In this document: positions 3,477 to 62,561 of the stretch, piece after piece
Layout: each line of letters opens with the position of its first letter
How positions within the stretch are numbered: the first letter of the stretch is position 1
Sequence record: OP795442
Strand: one strand, 5' to 3'
From: Escherichia phage A7_1
Length of the DNA: 64,000 bases
Notes under the pieces: generated by a model
Seen by the model: only the letters and a program-made list of their open reading frames with translations
Databases searched by the model: none
What the model was told of the DNA's origin: nothing
Position numbers and translations under genes: made by a program

Positions 3477-3857
3477 TTAGAGATAAACTCGCTTAACTTT
3501 TTCATGAACATTATCAAACAAAGTGTTGATCATCTGCAAGTCTTTAATAAGTTCTTCCGTAAATTGTTCTTCTTTGTGAGCAAACACACGAGAACGGTCA
3601 ATGTTTACGGGATCTGCACTTTGGTCACCAGACAGGTCGAAAATGTCGATACCAATACGAGCACGACCTTTTTCAATCTTATTCTCATCATCAATACCAT
3701 AAACACTCATGATTTGCATTTCACGATCTTCTTCACTGTTTGTGTAAATGATCGTCGTATTCAAATTCTTAACACCATCGTAAATGTGAATGTTACGTGT
3801 CGCAGAGATAGGAATCCAATCAGCAACCAAATAATCTTTACCGTCGAAAATACTCAT
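3477..3857 (-). CDS. hypothetical protein
   Basis: Track ORF, 126 aa, fits leftward gene packing. Confidence 0.5.
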   Translation of the reverse strand: MSIFDGKDYLVADWIPISATRNIHIYDGVKNLNTTIIYTNSEEDREMQIMSVYGIDDENKIEKGRARIGIDIFDLSGDQSADPVNIDRSRVFAHKEEQFTEELIKDLQMINTLFDNVHEKVKRVYL

Positions 3858-3911: not shown

Positions 3912-4499
3912 TCAAGGACGTTTCGGTGGACTAACGACACCTTTTTTAGATAAAGGTAATTCGTCTGCATCTTTTCCACGAAGAGATTCTAGCCACTCAT
4001 CTAAAGACAGGGGTACTTTACCATCACCTTTGGACCATACAGATAAGCAATACAGATCGTATGCAGATGGACCTCGATCACCTTTGTCACCATTCAACCC
4101 TTTTAAACTATCCAGCCAATCCTTCTCATTTAGTGGGATAGCGCCAGGATCTTCTTTACGAAGAACTCTCAGGTATGTTTCATAAGCAGACTCTCCACGG
4201 GGACCAATTGGACCAGGTAAACCTTGCGGTCCCTTTGCATACTCAAGACACTTAGAATCTAAATATGCAGACTTTGAACCATCATTAACCACTGAAACTT
4301 TATACAATGACCAAGCCAACAGAACTATCCAACAAGCAAACAATGCAAGCGGGTAAGGGATCATTGAAGTAAAGAATGACAGGGCTAAAATTACAACCTT
4401 GTTCTTGTGATCACGACGGAAAGCGATGATCACAGGGGCTAACCAGATAGCAAAGATAACCCACGCAGATAAGATAAACAACCAACTAATGTATTCCAT
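3912..4499 (-). CDS. membrane protein, superinfection-immunity-like N-terminus plus two short collagen-like G-X-Y segments
   Basis: Two N-terminal TM helices around an FRRDHKNK motif; GPQGLPGPIGPRGES and GLNGDKGDRGPS each followed by SAY(E/D). Confidence 0.6.
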   Translation of the reverse strand: MEYISWLFILSAWVIFAIWLAPVIIAFRRDHKNKVVILALSFFTSMIPYPLALFACWIVLLAWSLYKVSVVNDGSKSAYLDSKCLEYAKGPQGLPGPIGPRGESAYETYLRVLRKEDPGAIPLNEKDWLDSLKGLNGDKGDRGPSAYDLYCLSVWSKGDGKVPLSLDEWLESLRGKDADELPLSKKGVVSPPKRP

Positions 4500-4687
4500 T
4501 AAGCCTCCTCAGTATCGTCTTTAAAGTAATCTAACATCCAACTCTCTACAGGTTTCGCATAGTAACCTGTTCGCCCTTTCTTTTGGAACTCCATAACAAT
4601 TTCATTTGCAATACTTTTTGTGATTGCGATCCCGATTAGTGCTCCACCAGGACCCATTACTGCGTGTGAACTAAAAACATTACTCAT
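4499..4687 (-). CDS. hypothetical small protein
   Basis: Track ORF, 62 aa, start overlaps the upstream stop. Confidence 0.45.
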   Translation of the reverse strand: MSNVFSSHAVMGPGGALIGIAITKSIANEIVMEFQKKGRTGYYAKPVESWMLDYFKDDTEEA

Positions 4688-4750
4688 ATTTAACCCCCTT
4701 TATTCTCTCCGCAACCGACAAGAAGAAGTATACATAAAATGATTAACCTC

Positions 4751-11282: not shown

Positions 11283-13937
11283 CTAATGGCACGCCCCCCA
11301 GTTCATCCCTGTGAGGTATTCTCCAGTTATCATCACTGGTGATTTCATCATCTTAGCTGCTTGTTCGACACAACGAACAACCATCTCTCCTACAGGGCAG
11401 TATGTAATAGTGAAGATACCATTTTCATCAGGATCACACTTAAACTTCCCTTCTTTCACACAATGACCATCTAAGACCATCTTCTTAGCCAAGCAAGCTT
11501 CTACAAATTTTTTCGCGTCAGCTTCGTTGTCAAAGGTCCAGGTCTTCTTGAACTTGTGTGGCACTTCAAGCTGGTATTCATCATGATAGTAAATGATACG
11601 GCGAACACCTTCATCATACCAACCTTTCTTAACCAACTGCCAGTGCAGGAGGATACCTACCAAGTCAAACAGTGCAGCACCACCATTCTGCTGATAAGCA
11701 TTAAGCAATGAGTGTTTGGAACGAGTGTAGATCTTACGTCCATCAAGACCGTAGATGAATCGCTTACCGTTAGCTTCCCAAAACTTCTCTAGTGCTTCTT
11801 TACGACCTTTCAAGCCGATGTTGCTATCCCAGAATGCGTCGATTACTGCCTGGGCCTTCTCAAGAGTGATCCCCAGCATTGATGCAATCTTCGCTGCCTG
11901 TGCCCCGTACATAATTCCGTATGTCACACCTTTACCTTCACCACGAGAAACCTTCTTCCCTGCCGCTTTGGTATACGCTTCTGCGTTTCGGGAGTGAGCA
12001 TCTCCAGATTCCATGATACGAAGATAAGCGCCACCATCGAAATCATACGCGCCCCATGCCGCGATCATACCTTCCAAGTTTGAACCGTCGATACCTACCT
12101 GATATTTACCCTCGGAGGCTCTAAACAGTTCACGCATCTCTTTACCGAGAAGAACTTTCTCATCCGGCTTAGGTACGTTTGCTACGATCGTATGCTTACG
12201 ACGACCTGTGTTAGTTATTCCACTATAACGGGCCGGAAGTTTACCGTCAACCCGTAGACGTGGATGGTTAAGCCATCCGGTATCAACCTTCTCTTCTTTC
12301 AGTGGGTCAAGAACAGATCGTCGGTTACGTAAAGACAGCCATTTAACAATCTGTTTAGCCATTTCACCATCTACTCGCTCAAGGTTAGGGCAAAGACCCT
12401 GCTGATCCTTAAGTTGTGGAGATGTTGGTAATGCACGGGCTTTCTTCCTGAAGAACTTATACATCTTCTCTTTATCTTGCCACTGCTTACCACTGATACC
12501 TAAACTTTTCAGAATCAGATCGCGATATTCAGTCTGGTCAAGATCATCAATATATTGACGAACAATGATATCGACTTCGTTATCGGGACGTTGTTTCTTA
12601 AACTGGTCCTTCGTCGCATCTTTAGTTCGCCACAATGTTGGGACCCAACCAGCATCACGAATAAGGAATTTTTTAACGTCATCCTGATTACCAATACGCA
12701 TCGGGATCATAATGTCCGGCATCTTTTGTTCTTTGATATCCATCAAAGCACGAGCCATATCTTCCGGCGGCAAAGGAACAAGCCCTTGCTGCTTAACGTT
12801 TTGTGCACGGATAAAATCACCCATTTTGGATTCATCTTCTACACCGTGTTCAACACAATACTTGATCGCGGCGGCAGTAAGAGATCCGTCAGCCTTAAAC
12901 GGCTTACTTGGTGCACCTTTAAACTCTAATGCTTCCCAATTGATATTATAACCTAACTTCTCTAACCATTTCCAACCTGTACCGGAAAGAGATCCATCAC
13001 CCTTGAAAGGCTTAGATGGGAATGTCGGTTGTGCTGATTTCGACATTTCTTTCTTCGGTAACTTAGGTTCAACCTCTAACTCAATGTCTGTCATCATCTT
13101 ATCGATACGATCACGGAGCTTGAGTGCTTTTTCTTCATCAAATGAAACACCCTGAATCTCTTGCTCAATCATCAGGTAGTCGGTCAGCATACCTCGACGC
13201 AGGGCATTCTTCCAGTTGATCATTTTAAACTTCTTCTGATCTTTGTCTGTTTCATCCTTAAACATGAAGCGTTTATCATCTGGCATGGATTCACAAGAGA
13301 TCTCTTTCATCAGAGCATCCCACACCATTTCGTTGATAATTACGTCTTCAATAATACGATCGCAATATTTCCAAAGTGGAAGGCCACGCCAATCTTCAAT
13401 CGCCACTTTCTGGTTGGCTACTCGCATACCCCAAGCTTCAAGCCCGTGAGGGCCTACAGGCTTCATTTTACCTGTGACTGGGTTCTTTACCATCTCGGGA
13501 CAACCACGAGGCAGAGGGCGATCTGGATACAATGTACGGGACATTGAAAGTGTATCGAAGATGTTTACTTGTTTACCATTAATCGTACCCATGCAACCAG
13601 GGTCTGCAAACATATCGTAAGTTGTTCCAAGCATCTTCTTAAACAACTGGAGGTCGTAGCCGAAGATGTTGTGGATAGCAATTGCTTTAGGCTCTGTGAC
13701 AAACCACTCGTTTAATTCCTCAATGGTCCGAATCTTAAAGTTTTTACCTTTAGATTGGATAAATTTAACAGCTTGATCGTAACCTTCCCGCTGGGGATCA
13801 AGAAAGATGTTCCAGTTATCTTTTTTATACTCTTTAAACAAGACGCAGTGAATCAGATCAACCTCTGTCAATAGACCATTCGCTTCCGCATCTCCAATAA
13901 ATAAGCCTTTCATTTTTTCTCCTTCTTCAAGCTCCAA
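11283..13937 (-). CDS. DNA polymerase, family A, with 3'-5' exonuclease domain
   Basis: 884 aa; N-terminal FIGDAEANGL (Exo I D-x-E); motif A DGSNLEGM; motif B R-GEGKGVTYGIMYG; motif C YHDEYQLE. Confidence 0.9.
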   Translation of the reverse strand: MELEEGEKMKGLFIGDAEANGLLTEVDLIHCVLFKEYKKDNWNIFLDPQREGYDQAVKFIQSKGKNFKIRTIEELNEWFVTEPKAIAIHNIFGYDLQLFKKMLGTTYDMFADPGCMGTINGKQVNIFDTLSMSRTLYPDRPLPRGCPEMVKNPVTGKMKPVGPHGLEAWGMRVANQKVAIEDWRGLPLWKYCDRIIEDVIINEMVWDALMKEISCESMPDDKRFMFKDETDKDQKKFKMINWKNALRRGMLTDYLMIEQEIQGVSFDEEKALKLRDRIDKMMTDIELEVEPKLPKKEMSKSAQPTFPSKPFKGDGSLSGTGWKWLEKLGYNINWEALEFKGAPSKPFKADGSLTAAAIKYCVEHGVEDESKMGDFIRAQNVKQQGLVPLPPEDMARALMDIKEQKMPDIMIPMRIGNQDDVKKFLIRDAGWVPTLWRTKDATKDQFKKQRPDNEVDIIVRQYIDDLDQTEYRDLILKSLGISGKQWQDKEKMYKFFRKKARALPTSPQLKDQQGLCPNLERVDGEMAKQIVKWLSLRNRRSVLDPLKEEKVDTGWLNHPRLRVDGKLPARYSGITNTGRRKHTIVANVPKPDEKVLLGKEMRELFRASEGKYQVGIDGSNLEGMIAAWGAYDFDGGAYLRIMESGDAHSRNAEAYTKAAGKKVSRGEGKGVTYGIMYGAQAAKIASMLGITLEKAQAVIDAFWDSNIGLKGRKEALEKFWEANGKRFIYGLDGRKIYTRSKHSLLNAYQQNGGAALFDLVGILLHWQLVKKGWYDEGVRRIIYYHDEYQLEVPHKFKKTWTFDNEADAKKFVEACLAKKMVLDGHCVKEGKFKCDPDENGIFTITYCPVGEMVVRCVEQAAKMMKSPVMITGEYLTGMNWGACH

Positions 13938-39520: not shown

Positions 39521-40162
39521 ATGGCTATCTATGCAAAACTGAAAGAAAGTAAGAAAAGTTATTTTATTTCAATGGACCCATCTAACCGACGTATGATTGA
39601 AAATCATGGTGATCGATTCATTGTTCGACCTTCTGAGAATAACGATTCTTACTTACGTCCGGTGGGTCCACGTATTGAGGGTCAGTTCTTAACATCCCGA
39701 GATATCGAAGAGTATTTTACATTCTTCCCTGAATGGTCAGCAGAGTCAGCAGAATACATCGTTAACTTGGCGATCCCGCAGGGTCAGGTGTCTATTGATG
39801 ATCAGTATCTGTTGGGTGATTTAACTGGGGACTATAGAATTAAAACAAGCCACCCGAATATGTGGCGACTCTATAACAACTCTACTAACCCTGATGATTA
39901 TGTCCTAATCAAGCAGAGTAATTTGGAGAAATACTTCACCTTAGAGGAAGATTGCTTAAAGAGAGCATTGAATAAGTTTGACAATTACACCTCTTCTTCT
40001 TCTTCTTCTTCTTCTTCTGTTGAAAAGGAACAGGAACTCGCAGATGATGATGTTTTTGAATTGAAGATTAAACGCACAGTAAGGGTTAAGGATGCAGAAA
40101 TCACAGAGGACAATCTGGATCAGTTCATTGCACAGCTTACTAAACTGGTTAAAGGAGAATAA
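39521..40162 (+). CDS. hypothetical protein with poly-Ser tract
   Basis: 213 aa; internal run of 9 Ser encoded by a (TCT)n repeat. Confidence 0.55.
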   Translation: MAIYAKLKESKKSYFISMDPSNRRMIENHGDRFIVRPSENNDSYLRPVGPRIEGQFLTSRDIEEYFTFFPEWSAESAEYIVNLAIPQGQVSIDDQYLLGDLTGDYRIKTSHPNMWRLYNNSTNPDDYVLIKQSNLEKYFTLEEDCLKRALNKFDNYTSSSSSSSSSVEKEQELADDDVFELKIKRTVRVKDAEITEDNLDQFIAQLTKLVKGE

Positions 40163-40165
40163 AAG

Positions 40166-40480
40166 ATGATTATCGATCAAAGAACGCAAGTAGTTATTGA
40201 CAAGACTTTCAGTGTACGTAAAAGTATCATTGCAGACATTAGTCTTGAGCGTATGACCGAAGAGGGTATTGATACTTCTGTAAACTACCCCTTGATGGAA
40301 GAAGACTTCCTACGTAAAATTATGAAGCAGAGTTTTACCGACTACGTTCGGGTAGAAACGAACAAAGACATGTGGTTAGTCTTTAAACTATCTGCCGATA
40401 CTGATCACGAACAAGAATTCAATGCGGCATTAGCCTGGATTCTTAAATACTGTAATGACAATGATCTGGAGGTAATGTAA
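40166..40480 (+). CDS. hypothetical protein
   Basis: Track ORF, 104 aa. Confidence 0.5.
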   Translation: MIIDQRTQVVIDKTFSVRKSIIADISLERMTEEGIDTSVNYPLMEEDFLRKIMKQSFTDYVRVETNKDMWLVFKLSADTDHEQEFNAALAWILKYCNDNDLEVM

Positions 40481-40707
40481 TGCACAAGCTTCCAAAGAAC
40501 TTTCGATTCTATCGTGATCTGAAATTAAAGTCTGTGCTGTTTGTCGAGAATTTAGAGTTAGAGGAGTTTTATGGTTTTGAATGGTACGAAGGGGATATGG
40601 GAGAGATGAACCTCAAGAATGTTCTCGAATTTTGGGGCAACGATGATGGAGAAGGATACAGCCCCACTCCAAAACACGAGCTTTCCCTTGTTGAGATTAG
40701 ACAGTAA
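40480..40707 (+). CDS. hypothetical protein
   Basis: Track ORF, 75 aa, ATG overlaps upstream stop. Confidence 0.45.
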   Translation: MHKLPKNFRFYRDLKLKSVLFVENLELEEFYGFEWYEGDMGEMNLKNVLEFWGNDDGEGYSPTPKHELSLVEIRQ

Positions 40708-40812
40708 CAAAAGAAGGGGCCTAAACAGGCCCCTGTAAGCATAAACAAGCACAAGACGATAAATGACCTTACCAAAGATAAAAGGTCCTCACAAACGCAT
40801 ACAGGAGCTTAC

Positions 40813-41631
40813 ATGGCCTATCGTAAATTTGACCCACTAATCATTTATGAAGTTGTCCCAATGAGTGTCTCCAATCCTCATGGTTTGCAATCACCTACCC
40901 CACTTGACCATAAGACAATGATCAGGAATGCAGAGTACACCTTAAGAGATCTTGAGAACGAAGAGATTGAAAGTGCTGTGCATGGATTGAAAGACCTGAT
41001 CCGTGAACTTGATACGGATGATTCTGTTCAAGAATATATTGAAAAGTCAGAGGCGCTAATCACGAAGTTTCATGAGTACCGCACTAAGGTATCGCGTATT
41101 CTTGATGAAGCTTTTGATCCTTCATCAAAAGACCCGATAAATGATGACAAGGCAATAGCCTTACTCAGCCAAATAGCTGACGCTACTGACAGCATGGACC
41201 CTGGTTTTGTAAGGGCTGATCATACCTGTGTAGATCAGTTTCCTTTAGCCTATCTTAAATCCAAAAAAGCATTCGGTAGTCTGGCTTTTGTCTGGGAGTA
41301 TGAGAAAGATTCCCTTACTCGTTACATCAATCGGGTAGGTAAGAAAGATACTTCAGTTACGTTAAATATCTTTTGTGATGGTTCCTTGATGGTCCATAAC
41401 AACTGGACAAAAGAGAGCATCCTCTTTGGTAAAGAAAGAGATCAGAAATTTAAACTGGTAAACTATATCCGTTTCGCAACAGAGGATAGTAAAATGGGTA
41501 AGTCATTTAAAGAGGAGGACTTTAAAACTTTCTTTGAGGATTGGCTTTCCCCAACAGAAGAAGAGATCCAACTCTTCAAGGCTGTAAATGGGGATGTTTC
41601 GTTCGACCTCTACACACTTTTTAATGAGTGA
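40813..41631 (+). CDS. hypothetical protein
   Basis: Track ORF, 272 aa; last gene of the rightward unit. Confidence 0.55.
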   Translation: MAYRKFDPLIIYEVVPMSVSNPHGLQSPTPLDHKTMIRNAEYTLRDLENEEIESAVHGLKDLIRELDTDDSVQEYIEKSEALITKFHEYRTKVSRILDEAFDPSSKDPINDDKAIALLSQIADATDSMDPGFVRADHTCVDQFPLAYLKSKKAFGSLAFVWEYEKDSLTRYINRVGKKDTSVTLNIFCDGSLMVHNNWTKESILFGKERDQKFKLVNYIRFATEDSKMGKSFKEEDFKTFFEDWLSPTEEEIQLFKAVNGDVSFDLYTLFNE

Positions 41632-41651
41632 TATTTGTTCGCTGAAACAAA

Positions 41652-41748
41652 TTCAGATTTCAGATCCAAAATCTATTTGAGATATTTCCCTGTGATATTT
41701 GTTTCATGGGGAATTTTCAGATTTCAATTTGAAATTCTATTTGAGATA
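41652..41748. repeat. two about 33-bp imperfect direct repeats
   Basis: ttcagatttca(g/a)at...aaat(c/t)ctatttgagata occurs twice about 63 bp apart; approximate. Confidence 0.6.
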
Positions 41749-56298: not shown

Positions 56299-56322
56299 AA
56301 AGGCCGCAATAGCGGCCTTTGT
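56299..56322 (+). terminator. terminator-like hairpin
   Basis: aggccgcaatagcggcct then ttgtct. Confidence 0.6.
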
Positions 56323-56325
56323 CTA

Positions 56326-56354
56326 TTGACACCTGGTAAGCATTTCTTTAATAT
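56326..56354 (+). promoter_or_regulatory. sigma70-like promoter
   Basis: TTGACA-17-TAATAT. Confidence 0.6.
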
Positions 56355-56406
56355 GTATCTTGTAGGGCAAGCAATAACGCAAGCCTATAAACAGGACAAA
56401 CTAATC

Positions 56407-56604
56407 ATGACCATCGCTAATGAACTGATCGCTGTACTGAATGAAGCCAAATCTAATGATATCGATGTACAGATTAAAGAGTTACCCAATGGTCTGATCG
56501 GTTGTACTTGCACTTGTGTCGGAAGTGACTACACAGAAGTAAGCTCACTAGAATCTTTGATCCGTCACCTCAAGGCGATAGTAGAAGATTGGAGAATCAT
56601 CTAA
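56407..56604 (+). CDS. hypothetical small protein
   Basis: Track ORF 56326 begins at the TTG of the -35 element; ATG at about 56407 (MTIANELIAVLNEAK) is likelier. Confidence 0.45.
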   Translation: MTIANELIAVLNEAKSNDIDVQIKELPNGLIGCTCTCVGSDYTEVSSLESLIRHLKAIVEDWRII

Positions 56605-56612
56605 TCAACAAA

Positions 56613-56640
56613 GGGGCCGCTATTGCGGCCCTTATTATAT
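56613..56640 (+). terminator. rho-independent terminator ending the rightward array
   Basis: ggggccgctattgcggcccc then ttattatat. Confidence 0.7.
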
Positions 56641-57328
56641 CCATCGGCGTGACTCCCCCAACTCTATTAATCCCTTCCCCATTTGGATCATCATATCTTA
56701 CCCTATCTAATCATCAATCCAATCACCCTTTGGAATCTCTCTCCCAAAAATCTAAACTAATCTGATAGCTTACCACAACATAACACACAAAGAAAGAACT
56801 ATTTTGCCCACAAAGAAAGGCAGTTTTAAAGAGATACCATTGCCAGAGTATGGAGGTGGCGCGACCGTAGGGAGCGACACTATAAAACGAGTATACCCCT
56901 CCTACCGCTATGCGGTCATCGGTGATAACCGATATCGTTACACGCTATCTGTTCTCTTCGTTTCCTCGTTTTATAGTGTCTATCTGTAGTAATCTTTTAT
57001 CCTTTGTCAACAGATTAATTGGCTTATAGACAATTATTTATAGTGATTTATTATGCATAGCTACTGATTATGTATGCAATAAGGATACAATAAGGATACA
57101 GTAGCGGTAGTGTAGCGACGCTGTAAATATCAACAAAGAGATGCCGTATTTGCCCACAGAATGAACAAGTAAGCAGGGCGGTACGCCCTTTTGCTAATGA
57201 GCGTAGCTCTTTTGCTAGGTAAAACTCTCTTCTCTCTTCTTTCCCAAAATAAATTTTTTCTTGCTTTTATTGCCAGAGTATGGCGGGGCGCTCAGGCTAT
57301 TGATGGCCCTGATGGAGTCGCTCCTGTA

Positions 57329-57432
57329 CAGTTGGAATAGTTCACAGTTGGATAGTCACAAGTTGGTATTATTCTTCCCACTAGTTGGAACAGGCCAGAA
57401 CTGGCAAGGCTTAGAGTCGCTCCACTTGTTGG
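57329..57432. repeat. five AGTTGG-containing iterons
   Basis: cagttggaat, cacagttggat, cacaagttggt, cactagttggaac, cacttgttggac; approximate. Confidence 0.55.
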
Positions 57433-57638
57433 ACGGAAGAAGGGCGCTTGCAGTGCGTATAAGTTGTATTATGTTAAATGCAGATCGAAATCGGTATTCT
57501 AAATCAGATTCAGAAGTCAATAGAAATCTTTAACTTTATTGTTGGGGTAGCACAACATTTTTCTTGACAAGTCGAATCAAAGATGTATTGTGGATTGAAA
57601 ATAAATGAAGATAATGCTTGACTTCTTGGATATTTTGA

Positions 57639-57655
57639 AAACATCGGACCCCCTC
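57639..57655. repeat. homopolymeric C tract (C5 T C5 T C5)
   Basis: Read directly; approximate. Confidence 0.7.
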
Positions 57656-58064
57656 CCCCTCCCCCACGGTCGCCGTGCCTGGCAGCAGTGCCAACGCACT
57701 CAACAAAAAAGAGGCAAACATCCTGTTCTTATCGACGAAGACAACTGACCTCTACTGACGTGACTACAATTGGTGCGTCTCTTCAGGCCATCACCTTTGG
57801 GCACAGATATATTTGGGCAGGATAAATAATGGACCCACCCCGTCATTAGTGACTCAAAATTTTGGCGGGAGGGTATAAAAACTAAAAAGTGGTCGTTTAA
57901 AATTTATGGCAGAGGTCCACTCAGGGTAGACATATACTAAAAATTCTAAACTACTGGAAATTATAAACTACAAGACGGGTGGATGTATAGGGAAGGGAGG
58001 TGACTCAGTGGGAAGTGGTATGTGGTAAGGGATTTATACACACGAGCCTCACTAGGCAAATGTG

Positions 58065-58226
58065 ACTCTGTGGACAATAGGTATTACTCTGTGGACAATC
58101 GGAATAACATGAAGTAGGTCAGTCTCTTCAGAAAGTCTTGACCATTGTGGAAATATATGAAGTAATCCGTCAACCAAAATGGTTTACATTGTGGAAAGTA
58201 AACCAAAATGGTTTAGATGTGGGTAA
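58065..58226. promoter_or_regulatory. cluster of DnaA-box-like TGTGGA(C/A/T)AA motifs
   Basis: TGTGGACAA x2, TGTGGAAAT, TGTGGAAAG, TGTGGGTAA, each 1-2 mismatches from the TGTGGATAA complement of the DnaA R-box; approximate. Confidence 0.35.
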
Positions 58227-58508
58227 ACAGATGTGACTCGACAGGCAAAGTGGTGTGTCTCAGTAGGCCAACAGTGGTTACTCTTTAGGCAAACTACCTG
58301 ATTTTGGGATGAATCGATATTTGTGGGAATCGTTGTACGATATTTGGGCATTATTGTAGGTGGAGTACAACAGTTTGGAAGGACTATATAGTTTGGTGAG
58401 CACAACATTTTTGGTACTGGTACAGTATTTTTGGGGGAAGCATGGTGGCTTGGTTGCAATCCAGATGCAAAAAGCACCCACAATTGGGGTGCTCTCTGTA
58501 GTTCAGGA

Positions 58509-58907
58509 TCATACAGCCAGTCGTCTGAGGGCATACGTTGGATTGTCAATGTCAAATAGATTGACAAGCTTAACAATTCTGTAGCTCTGGGCTTTTACTG
58601 ACTTGTATTGAGATTTATCTTTATCTTCTTGAAGGATGATAGATTCAATTCCGTTATCATAGGCATACTCAAGGTAGCTTTGAGTGAACCCAAGGGCATC
58701 TGCATCCTTCTTGGCTATTTGGTAGACAAATTGCGCCTCTGTTCCGTCATAAATTACCTTCTTGTCTTTCGGTTCTATATAGATTCTACGTGCAGAGCCA
58801 GAACCAATCTTCTGCTCTTGTTCTTTACGTTTTTCAGCCTCTTCTGCCAAAGATTTCCGTGTACCATTCCAACGATGTGCGATTTTACTTACCATTCCGG
58901 CCTCCAA
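58509..58907 (-). CDS. hypothetical protein
   Basis: Track ORF, 132 aa; last gene of the leftward unit. Confidence 0.45.
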   Translation of the reverse strand: MEAGMVSKIAHRWNGTRKSLAEEAEKRKEQEQKIGSGSARRIYIEPKDKKVIYDGTEAQFVYQIAKKDADALGFTQSYLEYAYDNGIESIILQEDKDKSQYKSVKAQSYRIVKLVNLFDIDNPTYALRRLAV

Positions 58908-61363: not shown

Positions 61364-62561
61364 TTATTCCGGCAATTCCAAGGGTGTAAACTCGAAGAGT
61401 TGCATACCTATGTAACCTGGGAGCAATCCTGCACTGCTATTACCGACACCATATAGGATTCCTTTATCTACATAGTAGTGTGCAACATAGCCACCTTTTA
61501 GTGATGAATATTCTCCACCATATGGTACAGTCGCTGCAAGCTGTGTAAATACTGAATATGAAGACTGGAATTGTGCGCCTGCGCCTTGTAAACTACCCGT
61601 AGCTGCTCCTGTATAGTATACCCTTTTTTCTTCCGGGTGGAGAATACGGGCGCTAAAGTGACCAATGTACAAAGGAGGTAATGAAGGTACATTGGAAAAT
61701 ACCAACGTTGGCGCAACAACGTTTATATTACCCGAGTTGTTTACCCCGAGACTTCCTGACACACTTTGTCCTTGTGCGTAAACGGAGTAACTACCATTTG
61801 AAAGCACAATCCTAAAAAATCCAAACGTTGTCGCAATTATGTCAACTACCGTACCACCGCTAATTTGGCTTTGCCTAAGCCAAGTTGTATTGCTTGAAGT
61901 TGTTCCATTTTGTCCATTATTTGAAAGACCTGCGACATAAACTTCACCACTTTTGGTCAGAAGATAGGATGTATCGTATGTTGACCAGTCAAGATCTATT
62001 TTTTCAACATTCGTGAAGTCAGTCCTTAAGGTTAAGGTTTTTACCGTAGAGGTATCTCCTTTCCCCAAACCCCCTGAGTTGTTAGTACCAGGTTTTTACC
62101 GTAGAGGTATCTCCTTTCCCCAAACCCCCTGAGTTGTTAGTACCACACATTGCATACTGCCCATTGGTAAAGACAACAGCCAGATTACGATGCCCGATCG
62201 CCACCTGCTTAACTATAAGTCCTCTAGGTATAGGCATATCGGCAGTTACATCCGTGGGTGTCCTTATCGTAGTCCCATAACCCGTATTGAAATATTGATT
62301 AAACCCCATAAACAGCCACCTACCTGCGGTTGTCCTCATGAGAACAGCACTAGATGCAGTCCATATCTCTTCCACTTCTCTTGCCAGATAGCGCCATGTT
62401 GTAGCATTTCCCCCTGTACCGCTGAAGTATTGATCTCCTATACCATAGACGTTACCGGAGTTCATAAGCACAACAATGCCACCATTGCCAGCGGCAAACT
62501 TCTTAACGTTACCTTCCACCACTGGCAATTCGGCAGAGCCTAAGTTCATCATTTCTAACAT
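61364..62561 (-). pseudogene. tail-fibre paralogue disrupted by a 55-bp tandem duplication
   Basis: Track ORFs 62082..62561 and 61364..62068 both encode GLGKGDTSTVKT at the junction; removing one 55-bp copy joins them in frame. Confidence 0.7.
62036..62145. repeat. perfect 55-bp tandem duplication
   Basis: ggtttttaccgtagaggtatctcctttccccaaaccccctgagttgttagtacca occurs twice back to back. Confidence 0.9.

Follow-up and report, generated by a model that had tools for sequence, protein, structure and literature searches.

A non-coding region of Escherichia phage A7_1 is probably the junction of two chromosome ends and holds a putative 462-bp direct terminal repeat

The probable chromosome-end junction of phage A7_1

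We analysed a stretch of 64,000 nucleotides from Escherichia phage A7_1 (OP795442), in the following referred to as the window, with a focus on the non-coding region at positions 56640-58508. The region is the gap between two converging transcription units: the last rightward gene ends at 56604, the leftward genes end at 58509. Based on sequence comparison, we assign a probability of about 0.85 to the reading that this gap joins the left and right ends of a linear phage chromosome, collapsed in the assembly, with a direct terminal repeat (DTR) of 462 bp in its interior. An earlier note on the same DNA had suggested a replication origin, a packaging or terminase recognition region, or the boundary of a terminal repeat. 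The last two suggestions are supported by the genome ends of the related phage UPEC06, by the conservation profile, and by the layout and the boundary sequences in the genera Vequintavirus and Mydovirus; the complete repeat, at about 57218-57679, appears to lie inside the region. Short direct terminal repeats are already known in Vequintavirinae, and the region is a further case. Only a conserved hairpin element outside the repeat may be new, as no description of it was found in the literature examined.

Megablast and blastn searches match the region in only five phages, namely A5-4, A73, W70, vB_EcoM-LTH01 (LTH01) and UPEC06, with 82-92% identity (86-87% across the region for UPEC06). All five belong to the Septuagintavirus clade of Vequintavirinae, which was described only recently (PMC11370258), and the window is derived from a myovirus of this clade. 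The region is situated ~89 kb into the record of A5-4; for their genome comparison, the authors of A5-4, A73 and W70 set the large terminase as first gene (PMC11370258). Exact scans of IMG/VR and of JGI metagenomes with invariant 27-32-mers of the terminal repeat gave no match, and tblastn with a flanking 132-aa protein, as a synteny route to other genera, gave matches confined to the Septuagintavirus clade.

Evidence within the Septuagintavirus clade

The linear record of UPEC06 carries the same 462 bp at its start and at its end with zero mismatches, that is, a close relative has one sequence at both ends, and this sequence maps to 57218-57679 of the window. UPEC06 was assembled with SPAdes, and PhageTerm was used for its termini (PMC8928767). 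The conservation profile is derived from a MAFFT alignment of six genomes, the window and its five relatives, and is expressed as the number of relatives (of 5) that are identical per position. Positions 57206-57685 form a gap-free block with 4.3-5.0 of 5 relatives identical. To the left of the block (57086-57205) the value is 2.3-3.0 of 5, with many gaps; to the right (57686-57805) it is 2.1-3.9 of 5. The left edge of the repeat is abutted by a 21-bp unit ending in TTTTGCTA that occurs in 1-2 copies, and W70 diverges ~10 bp past the right edge. Conservation thus drops at both borders, next to the variable unit on one side and the divergence of W70 on the other, and the UPEC06 duplication and the conserved block share these borders. 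Judging by the alignment, this block is selectively maintained.

The interior of the repeat contains several conserved features (Table 1). The array of GTTGG units is reported by Tandem Repeats Finder with period 15 and 2.5 copies, and 4 of the 17 copies of AGTTGG in the 64-kb window fall within 54 bp of this array; the units are candidate protein-binding iterons. The poly-C tract C5TC5TC5, already pointed out in the earlier note, is present as described and is kept in five of the six genomes, with C5TCTC3TC5 in UPEC06. At the right boundary, the five-pair hairpin CACGG-TCG-CCGTG ends two bases before the end of the repeat. The conserved block left of the inverted repeat described below (56861-56883, GCGACCGTAGGGAGCGACAC) has reverse-complement matches at three sites of the repeat: GAGTCGCTCC at 57312-57324 and at 57412-57423, 100 bp apart, and CCCCACGGTCGC at 57662-57673 next to the poly-C tract. 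Protein sites shared in both orientations, or chance, could account for these matches.

Table 1. Features of the region and its borders. Positions refer to the window; conservation refers to the six-genome alignment.
Feature	Position	Strand or direction	Description and basis
Terminator hairpin GGGCCGC-TATT-GCGGCCC	56614-56631		Closes the rightward array; terminator scan and sequence; kept in 6/6 genomes
Right-end arm, unique non-coding	56640-57217		From last rightward gene to terminal repeat; no conserved ORF
Pyrimidine/C-rich tract (GTGACTCCCCCAAC, TCCCTTCCCC, TCTCTCCCAAAA)	56649-56760	+	Skew -0.39 to -0.76 in 100-nt windows
Conserved non-coding block	56786-57000		Invariant at 56846-56885, and nearly so to 56925, in six genomes; holds the inverted repeat
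ATTGCCAGAGTATGG, copy 1	56839-56853	+	Outside the terminal repeat
Inverted-repeat element	56876-56980		16-bp perfect arms GACACTATAAAACGAG at 56876-56891 and 56965-56980; 237 bp before the terminal repeat
Indel-rich zone	57006-57217		AATAAGGATAC twice; ACAAAGAG..TTGCCCACA units; 21-bp unit ending TTTTGCTA, 1-2 copies
Putative direct terminal repeat (462 bp)	57218-57679		Single collapsed copy in the window; UPEC06 ends, conservation, cross-genus boundaries
Repeat start	57218		Polypyrimidine start of the terminal repeat
ATTGCCAGAGTATGG, copy 2	57269-57283	+	52 bp inside the repeat
Five same-strand GTTGG-core repeats, CAGTTGGAATAGTT-type	57328-57435	+	Spaced 15-44 bp; conserved in relatives
AT-rich segment, 31-32% GC	57446-57648	+	Almost invariant; composition and conservation
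Sigma-70-like promoter TTGACA-16 nt-TATTGT	57564-57591	rightward	Promoter scan, 10/12 matches
C5TC5TC5 tract	57649-57665	+	14 bp from the right repeat boundary
Right boundary	57665-57692		Hairpin CACGG-TCG-CCGTG, then CC before and TGGCAGCAGTGCC after the boundary; equals the UPEC06 end
Left-end arm, unique non-coding	57680-58508		From terminal repeat to stop of first leftward gene; no conserved ORF
Two tandem 21-bp units ACTCTGTGGACAAT(A/C)GG..	58065-58106	+	Repeat family; units carry TGTGGACAA
Two 21-bp units GT(C/A)AACCAAAATGGTTTA	58169-58218	+	29 bp apart; each with palindrome AACCAAAATGGTT
Conserved block with TTTGGG-type and AGGCAAA-type repeats	58246-58405		4.7-4.8 of 5 relatives identical
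ACA(A/G)(C/T)ATTTTTGG units	58402-58434	+	1-2 copies among relatives; 21-bp indel
Terminator hairpin GCACCCC-AATTGT-GGGTGC, then T5	58474-58492	-	Closes the leftward unit; read from sequence; conserved in the alignment

The same layout in other genera

Between genera, blastn finds no DNA similarity in the region. The layout recurs nevertheless. Vequintavirus rV5 has a 2.6-kb gap (104014-106617) that is free of open reading frames (ORFs), between the convergent ORF163 and ORF164. The published map of rV5 shows a grey "non-coding" box, unexplained and without coordinates (PMC3606486), which we take to be this gap. According to megablast, position 1418 of the rV5 gap is the end point of four records (EdH4, ECP2309, Pr121LW and EcoIv14a_Aya), and position 960 is the start point of three (YN3, bov10K2 and bov22_2). 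Seven Vequintavirus records share two end sites, and we therefore place a 459-bp repeat inside the rV5 gap, a length that matches the terminal redundancy of 458 bp published for EdH4 and HdK5 (PMC6563267). For Mydovirus KPP-1, a repeat of 514 bp is reported on the basis of twofold coverage and PhageTerm (PMC9862379); it lies centrally in a 1.8-kb gap that separates convergent units. The record of Mydovirus DP annotates a repeat_region at 1-514 and at 145135-145648, with identical copies, and the record of KP12 starts at the same base as the DP repeat. The boundary positions hence agree across independent isolates, that is, across seven Vequintavirus records and across three Mydovirus sources (514 bp).

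The orientation of the records matters for this comparison. A reading of KPP-1 in the same orientation as the window was rejected, since the strand of the polymerase gene and the repeat-start motif show that the record is flipped. The counterpart of the right-end arm, from the last plus-strand gene to the repeat, is found in DP and, once the records are flipped, in KPP-1 and rV5. The starts of the repeats are alike: GACAAAACTCTCTTCTC in UPEC06, GACAAGTTTTTCTCCTC in rV5 (reverse strand), AACACGATTCTCTCTCC in DP and GGTAAAACTCTCTTCTC in the window. At the other boundary, the last bases of the repeat and the bases that follow it are CGCCGTGCC and TGGCAGCAGTGCC in the window, CGTCCGCC and AGGCAGCACTCC in rV5 (reverse strand), and TGTCCGTC and TAGCACCGCAG in DP. 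Given this likeness across genera, we therefore place the boundaries of the window at 57218 and 57679, probably correct to within a few bases.

Terminal repeats are also reported for two phi92-like phages of a sister subfamily, with lengths of 328 and 342 bp. The phi92-like phage BME3 (PP239276, Stephanstirmvirinae) has a ~3-kb ORF-free region around an annotated 342-bp 'DTR-L'. A 15-bp perfect inverted repeat (GCTAATAATAACGCA) with a 117-nt spacer ends 18 bp before DTR-L, and the record holds two copies, 1203 bp apart, of a ~150-bp segment that includes this inverted repeat.

Several points weigh against the assignment of the region as a chromosome-end junction. The window itself carries just one copy of the 462-bp segment, and the record of UPEC06 is labelled 'partial genome'. 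Transposase libraries weaken PhageTerm calls. The library of UPEC06 was a Nextera library, and its announcement gives no explicit PhageTerm result (PMC8928767). The genus paper for A5-4, A73 and W70 is silent on termini (PMC11370258), the genome of rV5 is described as circularly permuted (PMC3606486), and for the Vequintavirus BpE1AUH the PhageTerm call is headful packaging (PMC13211470). Finally, the roles proposed below for the repeat arrays and for the inverted repeat are inference only.

An inverted-repeat element outside the terminal repeat

The conserved block of the right-end arm holds an inverted-repeat element (Table 1) whose arms enclose two small hairpins, ACCGC-TAT-GCGGT and ATCGGT-GATA-ACCGAT. 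Folded as single-stranded DNA, the element has a free energy of -21 kcal/mol and z=-4.6; folded as RNA, it has z=-2.6, with about equal stability on either strand. The corresponding element of KPP-1 folds with z=-11. The motif GCGACACWATAAMACG is present in every Septuagintavirus relative and in both arms of a 21-bp perfect inverted repeat of KPP-1; the estimated chance of its occurrence in a 1.9-kb gap is ~3.5e-6. A scan of IMG/VR with a 17-mer of this motif gave 16 stretches. Four of them come from contigs of Vequintavirinae size (145-148 kb), and in each of these contigs there is a perfect inverted repeat of 18-21 bp with a nested stem of 11 bp; the remaining 12 are lone matches on smaller contigs. 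Inverted repeats related to the element are present in KPP-1 and DP, in a 145,964-bp PVP-SE1-like (Seunavirus) contig, in BIS47, in Ro1 and in rV5, the latter with an 18-bp inverted repeat (GACATAATATAAAAGCAG). Differences between genera affect both arms together; a five-sequence alignment of Mydovirus and Seunavirus shows compensatory changes in 8 of 67 predicted pairs. The distance from the element to the start of the repeat is 237 bp in the window, 309 bp in KPP-1 and DP, and 308 bp in rV5, always on the same side.

Searches of Rfam 15 gave no family match to the element, and the best hit in the KPP-1 gap (E=0.59) is below the gathering threshold. It is conceivable, though less likely than not, that the element is a cis-acting DNA hairpin or cruciform, conserved across Vequintavirinae and needed for end processing or for duplication of the repeat. 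The inverted repeat of BME3 is possibly an analogous element in a phi92-like phage.

Absence of genes and density of repeats

The earlier note had stated that the region holds no convincing ORF, and this is upheld. The ORFs in 56605-58508 are short, overlap each other and are located on both strands. A PHROG search of ten small ORFs of the region gave no convincing match (best E=0.013). The ORF with this weak match, at 56804-56989, has tblastn matches confined to the five relatives. The small ORFs are annotated differently in the five related GenBank records, with disagreement in frames and strands, and in the six-genome alignment the annotated ORFs are cut by indels that are not multiples of three. 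A scan for transfer RNAs and transfer-messenger RNAs in the region found none. The leftward unit closes with a hairpin that a simple terminator scan does not flag.

Likewise, the description of the region as packed with short direct repeats holds. A repeat search gives 26 direct repeat families. The region contains 37 repeated 10-mers, compared to 2.2 +/- 1.9 (maximum 10) in dinucleotide shuffles, and 16 repeated 12-mers, compared to 0.2 +/- 0.5. Each of the three sub-segments (two arms and the terminal repeat) exceeds its own shuffles; for repeated 9-mers, the two arms have 12 vs 0.9 and 23 vs 1.7, respectively. Few windows of the same size elsewhere score higher, namely at ~60.3-61.8 kb and at ~40.2-41.7 kb. 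In the former, the listed repeated 12-mers all stem from one 55-bp tandem duplication. The windows at ~40200-41700 have 42-45 repeated 10-mers vs 37 in the region, and the only repeat given nearby by Tandem Repeats Finder is a (TCT)9 run at 39992-40018. Five of the six copies of GTGACTC in the 64-kb window fall in the region, and the only two exact copies of ATTGCCAGAGTATGG in 64 kb are those at 56839 and 57269, both invariant in the six genomes.

A comparison of copy number between related phages, suggested as a check in the earlier note, shows that relatives differ. The zone at 57006-57217 has low conservation and many gaps, and its copy numbers vary among relatives. Most repeat families are located in the left-end arm (GTGACTC, CTCTGTGGACAAT, AACCAAAATGGTTTA, TTTGGG-type and ACAACATTTTTGG), where large indels among relatives are found at 57700-58245; the copy numbers of the units vary, and several units are deleted in some relatives. 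The number of CTCYGTGG(A)CAA units varies, with none in LTH01, and both GT(C/A)AACCAAAATGGTTTA units are missing from A73, LTH01 and UPEC06. In W70 (OP778610, ~4037-4747) an insertion after window position 57689 replaces 57690-58058. It includes a 483-bp ORF, W70_248, that starts at ~57690, about 10 bp beyond the right repeat boundary, and whose translation includes HRIVFYLYHNRWPTGEIDHINGD. Read from this translation, W70_248 is a putative HNH/AP2-type homing endonuclease.

The two arms are mirror images with respect to guanine-cytosine (GC) skew, with -0.39 to -0.76 at 56600-56800 vs +0.2 to +0.63 at 57900-58450. The top strand of the left-end arm is G-rich, with a skew of up to +0.63, and at both ends the C-rich strand is the one that runs 5' to 3' toward the terminus. 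The flipped rV5 box has a weaker form of this trend. The motif CTAAATAcCcc, which we take to be the late-promoter motif of rV5 and PVP-SE1, was rejected as a feature: it occurs at chance level in the window and is absent from the region.

Alternative explanations

A first alternative is that the region is, or also contains, a replication origin, in which iterons and DnaA-like sites would bind an initiator and AT-rich DNA would unwind. We regard this as unlikely. The five GTTGG repeats, with a spacing of 15-44 bp, are located directly before a 200-bp segment of 31-32% GC, with no gene adjacent; a structured inverted repeat is present, and four DnaA boxes with one mismatch cluster within 192 bp (58034-58226). 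The several DnaA-box-like motifs reported in the earlier note are, however, overstated. TGTGGAHAA occurs just twice in the region (58069 and 58090, vs a chance expectation of 2.9 for the whole window); both occurrences read TGTGGACAA and belong to one duplicated unit of 21 bp. The region lacks a perfect DnaA box (TTATCCACA). Two of the four clustered near-boxes belong to the same duplicated unit, and the segment with the cluster is lost or largely replaced in LTH01, UPEC06 and A73, with none of it left in LTH01. Throughout the window, boxes with one mismatch number 27, compared to 20.6 +/- 4.5 expected, and an enrichment was rejected as this count is at chance level. The polarity of the skew also disagrees: at the region, GC skew turns from positive to negative, a convergent switch, and the minimum of the cumulative skew is at ~32 kb. 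The features of a DnaA-dependent origin, conserved consensus boxes and a skew minimum, are thus absent or found elsewhere. In rV5, changes in skew merely follow the direction of transcription, and the genome also encodes a primase/helicase (PMC3606486). Because the window encodes its own DNA polymerase, and rV5 a primase/helicase as well, dependence on DnaA is not expected. An origin would be an additional function, compatible with a terminal repeat.

Slightly less probable is the explanation that the conserved parts are non-coding RNA genes: the inverted repeat would encode a structured RNA, a transcript from the promoter at 57564 would run across the left-end arm, and the repeats would be regulatory. 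The RNA fold of the element and its compensatory changes are consistent with this explanation, as is an invariant sigma-70-like promoter that points into ORF-free DNA. Yet no Rfam family is found in the window or in KPP-1: with a permissive threshold, the best hit of Rfam 15 in the window has E=0.4, with bit scores well below the gathering thresholds. A promoter scan finds no convincing promoter before the inverted repeat. The fold is about equally stable on both strands and its z-score is stronger with DNA parameters, which fits a DNA inverted repeat equally well. As every genome retains two matching arms, arms that are two copies of a protein-binding site would likewise show compensatory changes.

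A further alternative, a circularly permuted genome packaged by the headful mechanism from a pac site in the region, with the identical ends of records being assembly overlaps, we consider highly improbable, notwithstanding the circular permutation described for rV5 and the headful call for BpE1AUH cited above. An overlap left over by SPAdes is expected to equal the k-mer length, as with the 55 bp in A73, but UPEC06 has 462 bp. At least seven independent Vequintavirus records share two positions 459 bp apart, three Mydovirus sources concur on 514 bp, and the UPEC06 boundaries fall at the borders of the conserved block, with boundary sequences that are alike across genera. Least credible of all is non-functional filler (decayed genes, scars of mobile elements between converging units, and slippage repeats), which would account for the large indels, the variable copy numbers and the putative homing-endonuclease insertion, but neither for the conservation of 56786-57000, 57206-57685 and 58246-58405 (4.3-5.0 of 5, vs a regional identity of 82-92%) nor for an architecture and motifs that persist across genera without other DNA similarity in the region.

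Neighbouring genes and assembly anomalies

The last rightward gene (ORF 56326-56604, 92 aa, in the segment 56323-56606) is missing from LTH01 and UPEC06. It is flanked by near-identical terminator hairpins (~56300-56320 and ~56611-56635), as if it were a cassette that is gained and lost by recombination between the terminators. The DNA polymerase gene (11283-13937, minus strand) is a single uninterrupted ORF of 884 aa in the window and in UPEC06. In A5-4, A73, W70 and LTH01 the tblastn match to the polymerase consists of 2-3 pieces over ~3.4 kb, with an extra 'hypothetical protein', which suggests an intervening element in the gene.

Two anomalies are related to assembly. The window contains a perfect 55-bp tandem duplication (2.0 copies) at 62035-62145, which splits a minus-strand gene into the ORFs 61364-62068 and 62082-62561; with one copy dropped, the gene again encodes 380 aa, identical to the protein A5-4_119. 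SPAdes is commonly run with a k-mer size of 55, and the duplication therefore looks like an untrimmed overlap of a circular contig, with an artefactual frameshift. In A73 (OP778609), positions 3583-3740 correspond to window 57232-57288, inside the repeat, and contain an exact duplicate of 55 bp with 48 foreign bases in between. The foreign bases correspond, in reverse complement, to window 61951-62012, ~25 bp from the 55-bp duplication of the window, and the gene numbering of A73 restarts at the duplicated 55-mer. The segment is probably a chimeric assembly junction, and the duplicated 55-mer was rejected as evidence of a genome end and is regarded as an assembly leftover.

Possible mechanism and implications

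If the region is the junction of the chromosome ends, virion DNA would start at about 57218 and end at about 57679, with 57218-57679 present at both ends. The right-end arm would then be non-coding DNA just inside the right end, the left-end arm just inside the left end, and the flanking arrays of small genes would be transcribed outward toward the ends and stop at the terminators. By analogy to T7, replication would give rise to concatemers with a single copy of the repeat between each genome and the next. The terminase, as in T7, would recognise sequences in or around the repeat and cut at two fixed sites, putatively 5'-G(G/A)(T/C)AAAAC.. where the repeat begins and ..CCGTGCC followed by TGGCAGCAG where it ends, and DNA synthesis would duplicate the repeat, as it does in T7, such that every packaged genome receives a copy at each end. 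The short repeat arrays, consisting of the five GTTGG units and the flanking families, may be binding sites for terminase or for end-binding proteins, and their copy number could shift easily by slippage or recombination. The inverted repeat may form a DNA hairpin or cruciform in end processing or in duplication of the repeat.

The true ends would fix the linear map of the clade, whose published records are rotated and leave the repeat unannotated, and the true genome would be 462 bp longer than the collapsed sequence. A terminal repeat would also explain the "non-coding" box on the rV5 map, as well as assembly breaks and artefacts at this locus in several phages. Termini and packaging mode are relevant to phage engineering and to therapy dossiers, as generalised transduction by phages with fixed ends is commonly regarded as poor. 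The boundary sequences and the inverted repeat are candidate signals for terminase recognition and repeat duplication, none of which are defined in this group of myoviruses.

Comparison with known systems

The closest likeness is to the ends of Vequintavirus. Both have an ORF-free box of 1.9-2.6 kb between convergent arrays of small genes, an interior repeat of 459-462 bp with similar terminal nucleotides (GACAA...), a similar motif (WGGCAGCAST) after the end of the repeat, and an inverted repeat 237-308 bp outside its start. The rV5 box is also rich in repeats, with 35 repeated 10-mers compared to 5.0 +/- 2.9 in shuffles. In contrast to rV5, the arms of the window are shorter (578 and 829 bp vs about 1186 and 960 bp), the flanking repeat families differ in sequence without blastn similarity, and rV5 lacks C5TC5TC5 at the corresponding boundary.

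In Mydovirus, the repeat is experimentally supported (coverage and PhageTerm, annotated repeat_region). The region has in common with it the central placement of the repeat in a convergent gap (1.8 kb in Mydovirus), the order of inverted repeat, spacer (309 bp in Mydovirus) and repeat, and the 16-nt motif GCGACACWATAAMACG in the arm of the inverted repeat. Differences are a repeat that is 52 bp longer in Mydovirus, a larger element (~205 nt, with arms of 21 bp and a nested stem of 11 bp, vs 105 nt and arms of 16 bp in the window), and a weaker excess of flanking repeats (13 vs 2.2 +/- 1.9).

Like oriC and iteron origins, the region has short repeats in clusters, an AT-rich segment and sequences close to DnaA boxes; unlike such origins, it has no consensus box, its near-boxes are not conserved, the skew polarity is wrong and there is no adjoining initiator gene.

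T7 likewise has a short direct terminal repeat (160 bp) in non-coding DNA, host-type promoters in its terminal non-coding DNA (A0 and A1), and arrays of short direct repeats directly on the inner side of both copies of the terminal repeat (CCTAAAG units at 175-341 and 39620-39710). A terminal repeat with dense short repeats alongside therefore has a precedent. The hairpin proposed for T7 is placed at an inverted repeat adjacent to its terminal repeat. T7 duplicates its repeat while concatemers are processed, and a DNA hairpin has been put forward as an intermediate (Chung, Nardone and Hinkle 1990, summarised in PMC4281155); if the tentative role of the element described here is true, this step becomes testable in a group of large myoviruses. 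T7, in contrast, is an unrelated podovirus. Next to its terminal repeat, a single 7-bp family forms regular 13-bp arrays, whereas the window has many families with few copies each, and its left-end genes are transcribed inward, whereas both terminal arrays of the window are transcribed outward.

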